Shown one piece after another: positions 53,653 through 59,983 of a DNA stretch of 64,000 bases. How positions within the stretch are numbered: position 1 is the stretch's first letter; the number at the start of each line of letters is the position of its first letter. Where the stretch lies: positions 1,041,432 to 1,105,431 of the forward strand of contig JAHPZH010000001.1 in assembly GCA_019058315.1 (NCBI GenBank), given 5' to 3'. Position numbers and translations under genes: made by a program. A model generated the notes under the pieces. That model had not been told where the DNA came from and made no database searches. It worked only from the letters and a program-made list of their open reading frames with translations. This stretch comes from Candidatus Helarchaeota archaeon. GTDB lineage: Archaea > Asgardarchaeota > Lokiarchaeia > Helarchaeales > RDOG01.

Positions 53653-55497
53653 ATGTTTCAATATCAAAATATATATGCAGTTCCTTCATTTCATTCAAAA
53701 ATTCAATTTGCTTGTGAAGTTAGGAGGCTATTTTTTAAAATCAACCCTGATGTAATTGCAGTTGAATTACCTGAGGGAGTGAGGGAAAAAGTAATAGAGG
53801 GGGTAAAACATCTTCCTTACATCTCTGTAGTAATGTATGAGGAGAGGAAAAAGAAAAAGTATGCTTATGTTCCAATTGATCCTGGGGACTCAATTATTGA
53901 AGCAATTAGATTAGGATTAGAATATAAAAAACCTCTTGAATTTATAGATTTGGATGTAAAAAATTATAGAAATAAGCAATTTACCTATGGTTTTGATGAT
54001 TATTCAATAACAAAAATTGGATTGGATAAGTACTATAGTCTATTATTACCTTTTCTTAAAAAAAGCAATTATGGAACTAAAGATTATCATAGAGAACTCT
54101 ACATGGTTAAAAACCTAAAAAAACTAATGAAGAAGTATAAAAATAAAAAATTATTATTAGTTTTAGGAATGGGGCACTGGGAACGAATAATAGGTCTATT
54201 AAAACGACCTAAAATTAAGAATATAGAGAGTTTAATTAAACGAGAAGAAGTAAAAATTTTCAATTTATCTCCAAATTCTTACATTCATGTTTTACGTGAA
54301 ATACCTTATGTCACTTATTTATATCAAACAACTCGTTCAGAAATAAAATCTCCAAAAGATTTTTTTGATAAATTAGAAGCATATAAAACACTTTATTTAA
54401 AAGCTAAAGATAATTATTTTAAAGCATATGGAGAGCCAATACATCTCCAAAAATTAAAAATACTCTTTCAATACTCTAGAAACTATGCACTCTTAGAAAA
54501 AAAACTAATTCCAGACTTATTTCATCTGGTTGTTTCCGCAAAAAATGTTGTTGACGATGATTATGCGGGTGAAGTATATGATTTGGCCTTAAGTTATTTA
54601 TTTTTTGATAAAAAACAAAAGTACCCAACTGTTGAAATAAGAAGAAATTTAGGAGAAGTAGATTCCAGAAAGGTGCAAATAAGAAGGCGTATTCCGGTTG
54701 AGAAAGAAGTTCATAGAAAAATTCCATTAAAAAGACGCCCAAAAGAGAAGTATGAAGGTGAATGGGAGAAAAAGTGGAAAGATAATTATCATGGAATTTA
54801 TTCATACCCTCCTGAAGATATAATTTTCGAAAATTATATGGATTATGTTCGCAAAAGAGCCATGAAAATACTAGTTGAGGACAAAATTAGAATTCATGAG
54901 TTCAAAACAAGTCTTATGGACGGAATTTCAATGAGAGATACAATCCGAAATTGGCATCTTGATCAAAAATTATATGTGAGAGAAGAAATTCCTCCTAAGG
55001 GGTCTATAGGACCTGTTGTTTTTATTTTTGAAGAGGATGACACTATGGATCGAGCATATTCATATAAATTAGATTGGATATCTGAACATGATAAGGAATC
55101 TGATTTATATTTGTATGCGACTGCCCCTGGTATTAATATTATAGGCCCTGGAATTTCTCGTGGAGAATATGGTGGGTTCACTTCAGTTTTTCCACCACTT
55201 GTAGACTCATATATTGATGATCCAGATTATTGGGATGAAATAGATAAGGTTCGAAATAATGCAGGAGAGTTACTACTCAGAGCTATTTTTCATGCAGAGG
55301 ATCATAAATATATCGTTTATGTAGCAAAAAAACCTCCTGATTCACACCTTAAATCATTAGCTCGCAAAAAAGGTTATTATGTTATCTATATTCCTATAAC
55401 TGAATTCAATCCAGTTGCATTAAAGAAGCTAAGAATTGTTCATTATTTGAACTCTAAAACTGTAAGAAAATATGCTAAAGATTACATCTTCCTTTAG
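53653..55497 (+). CDS. Hypothetical protein, partner of the AAA ATPase (TraB/TIKI-like N-terminus)
   Basis: PSFH..PDVIAVELP..FIDLD..RE..M..LGMGHW pattern; 15 bp after the ATPase. Confidence 0.7.
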   Translation: MFQYQNIYAVPSFHSKIQFACEVRRLFFKINPDVIAVELPEGVREKVIEGVKHLPYISVVMYEERKKKKYAYVPIDPGDSIIEAIRLGLEYKKPLEFIDLDVKNYRNKQFTYGFDDYSITKIGLDKYYSLLLPFLKKSNYGTKDYHRELYMVKNLKKLMKKYKNKKLLLVLGMGHWERIIGLLKRPKIKNIESLIKREEVKIFNLSPNSYIHVLREIPYVTYLYQTTRSEIKSPKDFFDKLEAYKTLYLKAKDNYFKAYGEPIHLQKLKILFQYSRNYALLEKKLIPDLFHLVVSAKNVVDDDYAGEVYDLALSYLFFDKKQKYPTVEIRRNLGEVDSRKVQIRRRIPVEKEVHRKIPLKRRPKEKYEGEWEKKWKDNYHGIYSYPPEDIIFENYMDYVRKRAMKILVEDKIRIHEFKTSLMDGISMRDTIRNWHLDQKLYVREEIPPKGSIGPVVFIFEEDDTMDRAYSYKLDWISEHDKESDLYLYATAPGINIIGPGISRGEYGGFTSVFPPLVDSYIDDPDYWDEIDKVRNNAGELLLRAIFHAEDHKYIVYVAKKPPDSHLKSLARKKGYYVIYIPITEFNPVALKKLRIVHYLNSKTVRKYAKDYIFL

Positions 55498-55617
55498 ATT
55501 AGATTTTAACCACTCTTTAAGGTATATTATTTTATTATTATATTTTCCAAAATATAAATAACACAAAAATTTCATTATATTTTTTAATATCCAATAAATT
55601 TAACTAAAGTTGTCCTT

Positions 55618-56718
55618 ATGGCAGAAAAAAATGTTCTTTTTGAGGAAATAAAAGATAGGATCAACAAAATAGTTCGAGGAAATCGATATATTATATCTGA
55701 ATTTGAAAAATTCAAAGGATCTATAGAAAATCTTCAAAAAAATATTCAAGATGTTTCTGATCCTGATAAATCTTTAGCAGAAATCAAAGATAAATTGGAT
55801 AGTCTTTCAGATTTGTTTAAATTAGGTAAAACTGTAAAAAATTTAAAACCAACTATTAATGAATTAAATGAGACTATGAAATCAATGAGTGAAATAAAGA
55901 AAACAGTAGATGATATTAAAAAAAGTGTAACTACCTTGGGGGATTTAAAATTACTTGCTTCTGAACTTAAAATGACAATGGCAGAAATTCGAGAAACTTC
56001 AAAAATAATGAAAATGGATGTAACTACTGCAGAAATTGAATTAGCTAAAATAAAACCAACTATTAAACCACCAACTATTAAACCAATAGAAAAAATAAGA
56101 CCGATTTCAAGTTCTAAATCAATAGAACAAAAAACCGTTAGTTCAGACCCCCTTACTAAAGGTCCTTTAAAAGCAAGTCCAATGTATAAAATAAAAAAAC
56201 CAGAATCAGTTACCGAAACCAAAGCTGAGTCAATTAAAACAGAACCAATCATAATAAAACCAACTACAGTGAAATCAATTAAATCAGAACCGACTATTAT
56301 AAAACCAATCACAATGAAATCAATTAAATCAGAACCGACTATTATAAAACCAATTACAATGAAATTAATTAAATCAGAACCGACTATTATAAAGCCAATC
56401 ATAAAAAATTCAAATAAAGTAGATAAAATTATAAAAGCACCTTCGAAAAAGAAAGGTATAACTCATCCGATTGTATTAGAAATTTTTCAACTAATAAAAC
56501 AACGAGCCCAGAGTGGGGAATCTGCAGAAGCGCTTTCCAAGCATATTGAGAATGCAAGAGACACGATTGCTAAAAGTTGGAAATGGCATCCTGCTTTATT
56601 GGAACTAGGGACATTCGCAAGGAAACTGAAGAAACTTCCTCCTAAAAACCCCCCATCACCCGATCTAATTAAAATTTTATTAGAAAAATTGGAAGAATGG
56701 AAAGCAAAAATGACCTAG
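55618..56718 (+). CDS. Coiled-coil protein with 15-aa tandem repeats and a small C-terminal helical domain
   Basis: IKSEPTIIKPITMKS repeats; C-terminal WHPALLEL..LLEKLEEWK. Confidence 0.75.
   Translation: MAEKNVLFEEIKDRINKIVRGNRYIISEFEKFKGSIENLQKNIQDVSDPDKSLAEIKDKLDSLSDLFKLGKTVKNLKPTINELNETMKSMSEIKKTVDDIKKSVTTLGDLKLLASELKMTMAEIRETSKIMKMDVTTAEIELAKIKPTIKPPTIKPIEKIRPISSSKSIEQKTVSSDPLTKGPLKASPMYKIKKPESVTETKAESIKTEPIIIKPTTVKSIKSEPTIIKPITMKSIKSEPTIIKPITMKLIKSEPTIIKPIIKNSNKVDKIIKAPSKKKGITHPIVLEIFQLIKQRAQSGESAEALSKHIENARDTIAKSWKWHPALLELGTFARKLKKLPPKNPPSPDLIKILLEKLEEWKAKMT
56233..56400. repeat. Intragenic 45-bp tandem repeat, about 3.7 copies
   Basis: attaaa(a/t)cagaacc at 56233, 56278, 56323, 56368. 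Confidence 0.92.
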
Positions 56719-56836
56719 AATACAAGGTTTTAATACTATATCCTAGCTATCTAAAATGATAACAATATAAAAATAAGAAAATTAATTAGAAATCAAAAAT
56801 TTTAATAAATTAGTTAAAATATTTTAAAAATACGAT

Positions 56837-56944
56837 ATTCCCTAGACTCGATGAGGAGATTTAACGGCAAGGATGACTATTAGTAAAACTGATAGATATG
56901 AATTATTATAGTTACTCCGAGATACCTCTTCGAGAGGGAAAAAT
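56837..56944 (+). ncRNA. Candidate box C/D guide RNA enclosed by a bulge-helix-bulge (predicted EndA-excised 95-nt RNA, 56846-56940)
   Basis: Relatively GC-rich island in an AT-rich spacer; BHB att-ccct-AGA-ctcg / cgag-aggg-AAA-aat; C AGGATGA 56870-76, D' CTGA 56889-92, C' GATATGA 56895-901, D CCGA 56917-20; D guide TTATAGTTACT antisense to LSU H69 AGUAACUAUAA. Confidence 0.7.
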
Positions 56945-57023
56945 TACATATTACCTTAATTTAAAAAGAGATTTAGTAACTTAATTTATAATTTTTGAAA
57001 AATAGTTAAAATATATTAATTTT

Positions 57024-57236
57024 TTATATCGATACATCTTTAGGCTTTAGGGTTTTTCGATTTTGGCTTTTAGCTTTTTCAATAGCGTTATCTAAAATCT
57101 TTTTTAAAGTGTTATTTAATGTCTTATTTAGAACTTCTGATGAAACATTACATCCCTTACTATTCACATATTTACGAATAGTTGATTTAATGATCATGCT
57201 TCCTAATTTTACCTTTTTAGTTTGTTTTTCAGCCAT
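57024..57236 (-). CDS. Short (alpha3-truncated) histone-fold protein
   Basis: MIIKSTIRKYV..VSSEV..AIEKAKSQNRKTLKPKD; RxTxxxxD motif. Confidence 0.8.
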   Translation of the reverse strand: MAEKQTKKVKLGSMIIKSTIRKYVNSKGCNVSSEVLNKTLNNTLKKILDNAIEKAKSQNRKTLKPKDVSI

Positions 57237-57330
57237 CCTAATCCACCCTTCAAACTTTAAGTTAATGTTAATGGTAAAAGCTAATTCTAATATCAGCTAA
57301 TTAGTTTTTCAACTAAAAAAGAATATTTTT

Positions 57331-57349
57331 AGTTCTATTTAACTTTTTA
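57331..57349 (-). promoter_or_regulatory. BRE/TATA-like promoter element upstream of histone gene 57024-57236
   Basis: Minus-strand TAAAAAGTTAAATAGAACT, identical to 57679-57697. Confidence 0.7.
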
Positions 57350-57395
57350 TGTTCTAAAATTTAAAAGTAAAAAATAAAAAGAAGAAAGATTTTAA

Positions 57396-57593
57396 TTACG
57401 TTGGTACGTCAGCGGGCTTAATTGTCTTTCTTTTTTTATCTTTAGCATTTTGAATTGAAGTATCAAGTAGTTTTTTTACAGCTTTATTCAAAGTTTTATT
57501 AAGAACTTCTGAAGCTATGTTACATTCTTGGGCATTAACATATTTACGGACGGCAGATTTTACAATTAAACTAGCTTCCTTTTCCTTTGACAT
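57396..57593 (-). CDS. Short (alpha3-truncated) histone-fold protein, paralog
   Basis: Start moved to ATG 57593 (GTGGATT upstream, as in the paralog); LIVKSAVRKYV..AKDKKRKTIKPAD. Confidence 0.8.
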   Translation of the reverse strand: MSKEKEASLIVKSAVRKYVNAQECNIASEVLNKTLNKAVKKLLDTSIQNAKDKKRKTIKPADVPT

Positions 57594-57678
57594 TTTAATC
57601 CACTCTATGTCTTTTATTATTATTGACAAAAATCCAATTATCTTAATTAAATTGCTTTATTTAAAAAAGAAAAAAATA

Positions 57679-57697
57679 AGTTCTATTTAACTTTTTA
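57679..57697 (-). promoter_or_regulatory. BRE/TATA-like promoter element upstream of histone gene 57396-57593
   Basis: Identical 19-bp copy at a similar distance from the ATG. Confidence 0.7.
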
Positions 57698-57770
57698 GTT
57701 TTATTGATGGAATAGAATATAATTGAATTATTCATGATAATTCTTATAGAGGAAAAAATGTGAGTTTTAT

Positions 57771-58466
57771 TTGAAAAATATATTTGAACATATAGAAAAA
57801 ATTGCAAATATCCCTAGTATTCATCCTGAAGAAAAAAAAGTCCGTAATTTTATTATAAATGTTTTAAATTCCATGAAACGAGATTTCAAAATAGATGAAT
57901 TTGGGAATCTTTATTTGTTATCACAAGATAATTTTAAAATTTTACTCTCATCACATATGGATAAACAAGCGCCCCCATTTTTTAAAGATCTTGGGAAATA
58001 TATTCAAGGTAAACTTGATGATGCAGTAGGAATTGGGATAATTTTGAGCCTTGCACAACATTATGATTTTCCTGCTCTTTTTAGTGTAGGTGAAGAAAAA
58101 GGTTTAAAAGGTTCAAAATACGCTCTGAATAATAATCTAATCCCAAAAGTTGAAAGTGCAATTGTAATAGATACAAGTCCCTTTGGAGAACTCGGGAATG
58201 GTCCGATATTTTATACTTCTTTCGATAATAAGCAGCCATTTAACAAATTCTTAAATGAGATTTTTAATTCAGCAAAATTAATCAATGTAAATCTTCAACC
58301 TATGGATGGTTCTATCAATGATGGAGTCAATTTAATTAAAGTAATATCGGATACAGTTGCTTTGGAACCTCATATTGATAATTATCATACATCAGAAGAA
58401 ATTTCTGCAAAGATAGATATAATTAACACATATAAAGTAATAGAGCAATATTTAAAGAAAATTTAA
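57771..58466 (+). CDS. M20/M28/M42-family zinc peptidase-like protein
   Basis: SSHMD, GKLDDAVG, VGEEKG, VID, NYHTSEE. Confidence 0.85.
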   Translation: MKNIFEHIEKIANIPSIHPEEKKVRNFIINVLNSMKRDFKIDEFGNLYLLSQDNFKILLSSHMDKQAPPFFKDLGKYIQGKLDDAVGIGIILSLAQHYDFPALFSVGEEKGLKGSKYALNNNLIPKVESAIVIDTSPFGELGNGPIFYTSFDNKQPFNKFLNEIFNSAKLINVNLQPMDGSINDGVNLIKVISDTVALEPHIDNYHTSEEISAKIDIINTYKVIEQYLKKI

Positions 58467-59983
58467 AAAAAAGAGTATAAATCTTTTTTAATCGGTCTAT
58501 CTACTTTATCTTTTATATCTTTTAACTGAATAGATTCACCCATTTTTGGCAAAATAATATTTTTAAATTTATTTCTAAACTTTTCTATCCCCTTAGTATG
58601 TATAGGAATTATATACTTTGGACTTAAAGATTCTATGGTCCTAAAAATTTCTTCCTCACTCATATGGCCTGAAGTGTGAAGATAATGATAATCAAGATTA
58701 AAAAATTTAATCCATTGAAGGTGTCTCTTGAAATCTATTGCTTGCTCTTCATTAAAAGGTTCAGTTTCTGAATGTATATAAATCCCATTTGATGGTTTTA
58801 AATCTATTAAATTTCCTAACCGAAAATAATCCATTACCATAATAAATTTATCTAAATTATCTTTAACTTCATCAAATTTAACTACATTAGGAAAGTTAAG
58901 GAAATCTCGTTCCCATTTTGAATATTCACTCCGCCTAAAGCTGCCCATCTTTTTAGGTTCTTGATAAATCCTTAAATTATTATCTTCAAGCTTAATTCCC
59001 ATATCGTCACTTAAATCGTAAATATGTTGTGCTAGTTTTAATGGAATTACTAATTTTCTGCCACTATTTTTTGCTACATCATAAAAAGTTTTTAGTCGAT
59101 CAAAATCTCTTAAACTAAAATCTATAAAGACAGGATTATTAGTCTCTTGTACTATTCTTAATGCTTTTTCTTTAAGTATTTGTTCAGAATTAATTTTTTC
59201 TTCTAATGTCTTCCCCATCAATTCTTCAATAAGATTTTTTAGGAAATCTTCCTCAGTTTCATTTCCCACATTTGTTCCTTCTATTATTAAAATATCGATA
59301 TCTCGTTCTTCTAGTTTTTTTAAAGATTGTTTCGTAAGATAACCTCTCACTCCATGTTGTCTTAAATCTCCTGTATACACTATATTCATATCGCTCGCTT
59401 CTATGATATAACCACCCGCACCCCAAACTGAATGGTCTAGATCAAAAAAATCTACCTTTATTGTTCCATTATATTTATCCCAAGTATTAAACTCTCTTGA
59501 ACATTCTTCCCATTGCGAATGATGAATATTAAAACCGTAAGGTCTTTTCTTTAAGGAACAGAATTCACTTTCTATTCCCCCTTTGGAAATGGTTTCATAG
59601 CTTTCAATTATTTTAATAGTTAATTCTGATGCAAAAATCGGGACATCTTCTCTTATAAAGGGAATATATCCAAAATGATCCATATGTGGATGTGTAATAA
59701 AAACCCCTTTTATATCGGATTCGCCCTGTTCATGACCAGTTGGGCTTATTAAATCATCTCGATAAAGATAAGGTAGATTAGGAATAAGATTAAAAAATAG
59801 ATAATCACCAATTCCCTTTGAACTACGAGGTTTCAAATATTCAGCAAAAAATTTTCTTCGGTCTTCATATGAAACGCCAAAATCAAAAAACAAAGATTCT
59901 TCTGAATCTTTAATTAAAATCTTATTTCCTCCAATTTGATTTATTCCACCATAAAGAACTATTTCTGAAGTTAATATCTCCAT
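58463..59983 (-). CDS. Metallo-beta-lactamase beta-CASP nuclease (RNase J-like)
   Basis: GG.NQIGGN, FDFG, THPHMDH, DHS, YTGD, IEGT, HTSGH, IPIH. Confidence 0.88.
   Translation of the reverse strand: MEILTSEIVLYGGINQIGGNKILIKDSEESLFFDFGVSYEDRRKFFAEYLKPRSSKGIGDYLFFNLIPNLPYLYRDDLISPTGHEQGESDIKGVFITHPHMDHFGYIPFIREDVPIFASELTIKIIESYETISKGGIESEFCSLKKRPYGFNIHHSQWEECSREFNTWDKYNGTIKVDFFDLDHSVWGAGGYIIEASDMNIVYTGDLRQHGVRGYLTKQSLKKLEERDIDILIIEGTNVGNETEEDFLKNLIEELMGKTLEEKINSEQILKEKALRIVQETNNPVFIDFSLRDFDRLKTFYDVAKNSGRKLVIPLKLAQHIYDLSDDMGIKLEDNNLRIYQEPKKMGSFRRSEYSKWERDFLNFPNVVKFDEVKDNLDKFIMVMDYFRLGNLIDLKPSNGIYIHSETEPFNEEQAIDFKRHLQWIKFFNLDYHYLHTSGHMSEEEIFRTIESLSPKYIIPIHTKGIEKFRNKFKNIILPKMGESIQLKDIKDKVDRPIKKDLYSFF

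Follow-up and report, generated by a model that had tools for sequence, protein, structure and literature searches.

We describe a stand-alone gene that encodes a box C/D sRNA with two guides and is enclosed in a bulge-helix-bulge (BHB) splice signal; we propose that, by means of this frame, its RNA is probably excised and circularised. The gene lies at positions 56837-56944 (+), in an intergenic island of the window, by which we mean the whole 64,000-nt stretch of DNA analysed here (C3:1041432-1105431 of a 5.8-Mb assembly with 30% G+C; the host genome is labelled G000). Judged from its sequence, this is a real box C/D sRNA gene, predicted to aim at two rRNA sites that are also methylated in yeast and humans. 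The frame recurs in relatives with compensatory changes, and the host genome carries genes for the enzymes that would process the transcript.

Architecture of the element

The element combines an hBHBh' frame with a box C/D sRNA. From 5' to 3', its parts are as follows.

56837-56839 (+): outer helix h, 5' strand ATT, pairing with 56942-56944 through three A-U pairs only
56840-56843 (+): central 4-bp helix H, 5' strand CCCT, pairing with AGGG at 56935-56938
56844-56846 (+): 5' bulge AGA, with EndA predicted to cut at 56845/56846
56847-56849 (+): inner helix h', also stem I of the kink-turn, 5' strand CTC; in family f1 the pairing reaches 56856
56851-56857 (+): box C, ATGAGGA, directly after CTC-G; consensus RUGAUGA, here with G at position 5
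56858-56872 (+): D' guide, 15 nt, of which 56865-56872 (CGGCAAGG) pairs with host 23S CCUUGCCG
56873-56876 (+): box D', ATGA; an NNGA column in homologues (ATGA, TCGA, ACGA, TTGA, GTGA)
56877-56895 (+): variable D'-C' hairpin, CTAT / 11-nt loop / ATAG
56898-56904 (+): box C', ATGAATT, with the ATGA core at the same column in homologues
56905-56916 (+): D guide, 12 nt, of which 56906-56916 pairs with 23S helix 69 AGUAACUAUAA
56917-56920 (+): box D, CCGA; CNGA in homologues
56921-56931 (+): insert confined to family f1, which follows box D, precedes the inner helix and could pair with the region of box C
56932-56934 (+): inner helix h', 3' strand GAG
56935-56938 (+): central helix H, 3' strand AGGG
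56939-56941 (+): 3' bulge AAA, with EndA predicted to cut at 56940/56941
56942-56944 (+): outer helix h, 3' strand AAT, pairing with 56837-56839

The 4-bp helix, the 3-nt bulges and the flanking helices h and h' define this as an hBHBh' motif, in which h is weak in G000, and every helix and bulge drawn by a first-pass annotation of this DNA is present where it had been placed. EndA cut sites are set after the second base of each bulge, following tRNA-intron precedent. The extended inner helix (CTCGA.GAGG / CCTC.TCGAG) is strong, with 9 of its 10 pairs formed, and this pairing, CTCGATGAGG/CCTCTTCGAG, has undergone a compensatory change from G-C to A-T in genome G001. The + strand of the element folds with a minimum free energy of -29.4 kcal/mol (z -3.6 against shuffles, compared with z -1.8 for the - strand), and the central and inner helices include G.U pairs that only the + strand allows, in agreement with the strand chosen at first pass. 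As that annotation had also warned, a 6-bp TTCCCT/AGGGAA helix competes with the frame; the minimum-free-energy fold in G000 favours this rival, which abolishes the 3' bulge. In G000, T56838-39 can take the first two A residues of the 3' bulge as partners.

Within the frame, we find the anatomy of an archaeal box C/D sRNA: a terminal C/D kink-turn beside a short stem, an internal C'/D' motif and guides that match rRNA. The kink-turn is supported because the odd G at position 5 of box C faces the odd C at position 2 of box D and the pair covaries among homologues (G-C, A-U, C-G, G.U and U.U), in which the box C counterparts read ATGACGA, ATGAAGC, ATGAAAA or ATGATGA. Beside the C and D boxes, CTC/GAG or TTC/GGA is kept across homologues. 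The stem of the D'-C' hairpin is kept with changed sequence (CTAC/GTAG in G003, 8 bp in G001, CCGG/CCGG in family f27) around an unconserved loop. The C'-D spacer is exactly 12 nt, and the C-D' spacer is 15 nt in G000 and G001 and 12 nt in most homologues. The insert that follows box D measures 11 nt in G000 and 16 nt in G001, is absent from the other seven BHB-type families, and shows one compensatory change between G000 and G001 in its pairing with the C-box region. Such an insert would strengthen the inner helix but compete with the kink-turn, so that the RNA could adopt either the processing fold or the kink-turn fold but not both at once.

The internal layout given here departs from that of the first-pass annotation, which had read box C as AGGATGA (56870-76), a D' guide at 56877-88 followed by CTGA (56889-92) as box D', and box C' as GATATGA (56895-901). 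These motifs exist in G000, and the Rfam model sR1 gives a weak alignment to them (11.2 bits, E 1.6, where the gathering score is 45), but none of them is kept in homologues, in which this segment forms a hairpin that differs in both sequence and length. AGGATGA overlaps the real box D', the true box C standing 19 nt further upstream; the former D' guide and its CTGA fall in the unconserved hairpin loop; and homologues place box C' at ATGAATT (56898-904). The guide at 56877-88 had been left with no assigned target, whereas the corrected layout combines canonical 12-nt C'-D spacing with a real D' guide (56865-72) that aims at a conserved second site, the equivalent of E. coli G1945. That the earlier layout is the functional one strikes us as hardly credible.

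Guide targets in helices 69 and 71

Helix 69 of the single-copy host 23S rRNA reads GGGAGTAACTATAAC, and the D guide, in which TATAGTTAC is invariant among homologues, pairs with it over 11 nt; the earlier assignment of this guide to the helix 69 loop is borne out by the host's own rRNA. T56912, the fifth nucleotide upstream of box D, faces host A2128, which corresponds to E. coli A1913 when numbered against the annotated E. coli 23S, just as the +5 rule had been applied at first pass. Its further equation of this site with yeast Am2256 (snR63) holds because yeast psi2258 and psi2260 are equated with E. coli 1915 and 1917 (PMC2794176).

The D' guide forms a shorter duplex of 8 bp, in which C56868 (N+5) faces G2160, the equivalent of E. 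coli G1945, in helix 71 and 32 nt downstream of A2128. In G001, this guide and its target have changed together relative to G000 (target CCTTGTCGG, guide CTGACAAGG), and the D' guide is conserved in families f3, f4, f16, f21, f26 and f28. By the same offset of 343, which reflects equal spacing, we infer that the G1945 equivalent is yeast Gm2288, a methylation guided by snR75 (PMC5199042).

Conservation and covariation of the frame

Homologues were collected by BLAST, by a pattern search and then with a covariance model (R1) in 151 genomes sampled across the phylum; R1 matched the sRNA in 72 of them, mostly over the full length of the model. The BHB frame stands at the same register in eight families (f1, f3, f4, f21, f26, f27, f28 and, in a relaxed form, f9). 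On the 5' side, the order is always outer helix, 4-bp helix, 3-nt bulge, inner helix of 2-3 bp, one base and box C; on the 3' side, box D is followed by the inner helix, the 4-bp helix, the 3-nt bulge and the outer helix. Six different central helices occupy this position: CCCT/AGGG, CCCC/GGGG, CCCG/CGGG, CCAC/GTGG, ATAA/TTAT and GTAA/TTAT.

An alignment of 34 distinct sequences, fitted to the covariance model, quantifies the pairing. Overall, 85.7% of cells pair, a share that falls to 33-51% once the partner columns are offset by 1-3 positions. In the central helix the proportion reaches 97%, with all four pairs varying on both sides; the three innermost pairs of the outer helix are nearly always formed, and the 3-nt length of the bulges is kept in nearly all BHB-type homologues. 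Two further checks agree. RNAalifold, run on an independent MAFFT alignment (11 sequences, 7 families), recovered the outer, central and inner helices together with both 3-nt bulges. A strict-motif search anchored on the C and D boxes only found the motif, in one register, in 2/2 sequences of f1, 2/2 of f3, 10/12 of f4, 3/6 of f21, 2/2 of f26, 1/4 of f27 and 2/5 of f28; in shuffled flanks the motif appeared in 0.1-5.5% of trials. The outer helix ranges from 3 to 10 bp across homologues, is longest in G001, G003 and G007 (8-10 bp) and weakest in G000 (3 bp), and in several sequences from f27, f28 and f9 the motif is interrupted by a mismatch or an additional base. With its register recurring in eight families with compensatory changes, the frame is far beyond chance, and the covarying copies that the first-pass annotation had proposed to look for in other genomes exist.

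Six further families (f16, f19, f20, f7, f11 and f25) have the same sRNA with plain terminal stems instead of the frame, so the frame is dispensable for guide function. In f16, all 22 of 22 genomes carry the sRNA. In every one of them (L040-L061), the plain-stem sRNA directly follows a protein gene ending in a run of acidic residues and is itself followed by oligo-T; the conserved synteny suggests that this sRNA may be co-transcribed with the preceding protein gene.

Genomic context and other C/D sRNAs of the host

On one side of the element is a coiled-coil protein gene and on the other are histone-fold genes; its immediate neighbours are as follows.

55618-56718 (+): upstream gene for a 366-aa coiled-coil protein, ending 120 nt before the element
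57024-57236 (-): histone-fold gene, on the downstream flank

The 366-aa protein matches BLOC1_2 only below threshold (30.2 bits, cut-off 33.4), and no relatives of it were found in the species-representative genome collection. ARAGORN places no tRNA gene in 55000-59000, that is, none within 2 kb of the element, which fits the earlier statement that tRNA exons are lacking around it. In several families, TATA-like elements, read by eye, precede the central helix by ~20-40 nt; because they stand just upstream of the frame, they suggest that the sRNA may have short dedicated transcripts.

A listing of sequencing runs that contain this DNA gave eleven, all of them DNA metagenomes and most from sediment; nine include part of the stretch, one is its likely source, and no RNA run was among them. 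Elsewhere in the genome, we find two EndA paralogues (184 and 204 aa; regions C12:5422-5676 and C1:331438-331698), an RtcB gene, a fibrillarin gene with Nop5 adjoining it, many interrupted tRNA genes, which make the tRNA set intron-rich, and a full-length actin match (448 bits). The actin and the interrupted tRNA genes are in keeping with an Asgard archaeon. The 16S rRNA gene (G000:C12:50-897) is at a contig end, with only its first ~830 positions assembled, and one of the EndA paralogues lies 4.5 kb from this partial 16S on the same contig.

A whole-genome BHB scan anchored on C-box-like motifs gave 379 matches compared with 232 in reversed controls, and the one credible match is the element at 56837-56944. 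A generic strict-BHB scan is uninformative at 30% G+C (175 matches, 197 in controls). A second match to the guide pattern in the host genome, at C11:705481, lies in coding-looking sequence and was dismissed as chance, as were most pattern matches in other genomes.

A crude guide-to-rRNA scan, which covered the partial 16S and would let guides against its missing part escape, found two other clear C/D sRNAs in G000, both lacking a BHB frame. One, on the minus strand of C5 and ~56.8 kb from the right end of that contig (index 1346882), outside the window, ends in a simple GGAC/GTCC stem. Complementary to 23S CAAATGCCTT, its D guide is directed at the A that corresponds to yeast Am2281, one more site of the helix 69-71 region that is shared with eukaryotes. 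The other, on the minus strand of C3 at ~629.5 kb, also outside the window, has canonical ATGATGA and CTGA boxes and a 13-nt match to 23S position 2866, and it sits in a dense cluster of ~20 tRNA genes (C3:627.6-631.8 kb), many of them with predicted introns.

Proposed processing and rival explanations

To our knowledge, the splicing endonuclease is the sole enzyme that demands BHB geometry. The reading that we favour, and think fairly likely, is that this gene encodes a free-standing double-guide box C/D sRNA that EndA excises and RtcB closes into a ring. The endonuclease, probably a heterotetramer of the two EndA paralogues, would cut a transcript of the gene once per bulge, and RtcB would seal the excised piece into a ring of ~95 nt here and ~72 nt in most relatives. 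In this ring, stem I would be capped by a 7-nt loop made up of the 3' strand of the central helix and the bulge remnants. L7Ae, Nop5 and fibrillarin would bind the sRNA, with the D guide directing 2'-O-methylation of A2128, at the tip of helix 69, and the D' guide directing methylation of G2160 in helix 71. The pattern of two EndA paralogues in Asgard genomes has been ascribed to a broad-specificity two-subunit enzyme (preprint 10.64898/2026.10.13.758758).

Instead, the RNA could be an ordinary C/D sRNA that stays linear, its ends trimmed by exonucleases with no part for EndA, and the frame no more than a lengthened terminal stem that lends stability to the RNA or the RNP. The occurrence of the same sRNA with plain terminal stems of 4-9 bp in six families is what this explanation would expect, the outer helix of G000 is weak, and the ends of C/D sRNAs are generally set by RNP protection (review PMC7994747); that the two other C/D sRNAs of G000 lack a BHB frame also counts against an EndA route. 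However, a stabilising stem has no need of exactly two 3-nt bulges, one per strand and separated by 4 bp, that keep one register through six helix sequences, and unpaired bulges weaken stems rather than stabilise them, so we regard this explanation as unlikely. EndA might also cut the frame merely to release, or define the ends of, a linear sRNA within a longer transcript, any ring being a short-lived by-product. The 3' region of the upstream + gene, which ends 120 nt before the element, could supply such a transcript, and in model archaea the rings that rRNA forms at BHB motifs are intermediates of processing (PMC7038931). Against this, TATA-like elements stand just upstream of the frame in several families, and excised BHB introns are often recovered as circles (PMC7714728, PMC9014305); we consider release in linear form quite improbable. 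Excision by EndA followed by ring closure by RtcB is the course of events that we carry forward below.

Relation to known systems

The closest known parallel is the intron of euryarchaeal pre-tRNA-Trp (Haloferax volcanii, Pyrococcus), in which a C/D guide is likewise enclosed by a BHB (Clouet d'Orval 2001, as cited in PMC7714728). EndA excises this intron, which is then recovered in circular form (PMC9014305). Both RNAs contain two guides for sites on both sides of an intron position. In contrast to that intron, the element described here has no exons and no tRNA within 2 kb, its leader and trailer each span a few nucleotides, and its targets are in 23S rRNA, in trans, rather than in a host tRNA of its own; it is not a guide of the tRNA-Trp-intron type. 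Within BHB motifs, C/D guides are known as tRNA-Trp introns only (PMC7714728, PMC9014305).

Stand-alone C/D sRNAs that can occur as circles in Thermococcales, Sulfolobus and Nanoarchaeum are, like ours, the products of free-standing genes (Starostina 2004 and Danan 2012, via PMC7994747; PMC9014305). In T. kodakarensis, these circles need the ATP-dependent ligase Rnl, not RtcB (PMC9014305). The host studied here is not an evident thermophile, being AT-rich (30% G+C) and coming from sediment metagenomes, unlike the organisms with these circular sRNAs. Archaeal C/D sRNA termini usually lack BHB motifs, and their circularisation route is described as unclear (2021 review PMC7994747). Stand-alone BHB processing is established for other RNAs, namely the 16S/23S stems, the permuted SRP RNA of Thermoproteus (PMC4731332) and the 5' UTR of HVO_1309 in Haloferax (PMC7714728). 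There too the motif flanks a functional RNA and is cut by EndA and joined by RtcB, but none of these non-tRNA substrates is a modification guide RNA. Our literature search found no BHB-framed stand-alone C/D sRNA, nor any paper on Asgard C/D sRNAs. Excision by EndA and sealing by RtcB has probably not been described before for stand-alone guides, and what appears to be new here is the BHB-framed stand-alone C/D sRNA itself.

In eukaryotes, the same target nucleotides are served by two snoRNAs, yeast snR63/SNORD46-type (Am2256) and snR75 (Gm2288), compared with one double guide here. Plant snoR442 (Rfam RF01232) has the same guide register, with AGUUACU directly before box D. With its Rfam model the element scores 18.4 bits (E 0.13), short of the gathering score of 50, and by sequence it is therefore not a member of that family; nothing in the window reaches any Rfam gathering score. 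The likeness to snoR442 appears to be forced by pairing to an invariant rRNA loop and is not proof of common ancestry.

The two targets also bracket a recurrent intron site. In six genomes (G001, G179, G068, G167, G160 and G286), 23S rRNA is split at ~E. coli 1927, exactly between the sRNA targets at 1913 and 1945, by intervening sequences that range from ~250 to ~840 nt, the one in G068 measuring ~580 nt; the split loci include L147/L149 (G001:C165) and L148/L150 (G179:C44). The 23S of G000 is uninterrupted at ~1927. Compared by eye, the leader and trailer of the frame have no sequence likeness to the 23S exon ends at ~1927, and the 23S introns of G001 and G179 contain no evident C/D guide. 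Because its targets bracket this site, the gene may have originated as an rRNA intron that, like the tRNA-Trp intron, guided methylation of the exons on either side of it, and may later have become free-standing with its splice signal retained. The broadest version of our proposal holds that such an 'exon-less intron' is ancient in Asgard archaea, that EndA and RtcB provide dedicated biogenesis of a conserved circular double guide, and that descent from an rRNA intron is possible; taken as a whole, we offer it as speculation that is distinctly more likely to be wrong than right.

Implications

The finding bears on how archaeal C/D guides gain their ends and why some of them are circular. An ATP-dependent ligase in Thermococcus is the sole proven route to stand-alone guide circles (PMC9014305). 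The conserved, covarying frame described here offers a second, precise and testable route for stand-alone guides, in which EndA would cut and RtcB would seal. It also adds a candidate substrate, neither tRNA nor rRNA, for the splicing endonuclease of organisms with unusually intron-rich tRNA genes. For Asgard archaea, the element supplies a first concrete rRNA methylation guide, with predicted targets at the subunit interface, in helices 69 and 71.

More broadly, Asgard archaea are the lineage closest to eukaryotes, and most eukaryotic snoRNAs are freed from introns. If an exon-less-intron origin proves true, the gene would represent an archaeal forerunner of intron-encoded snoRNA biogenesis.
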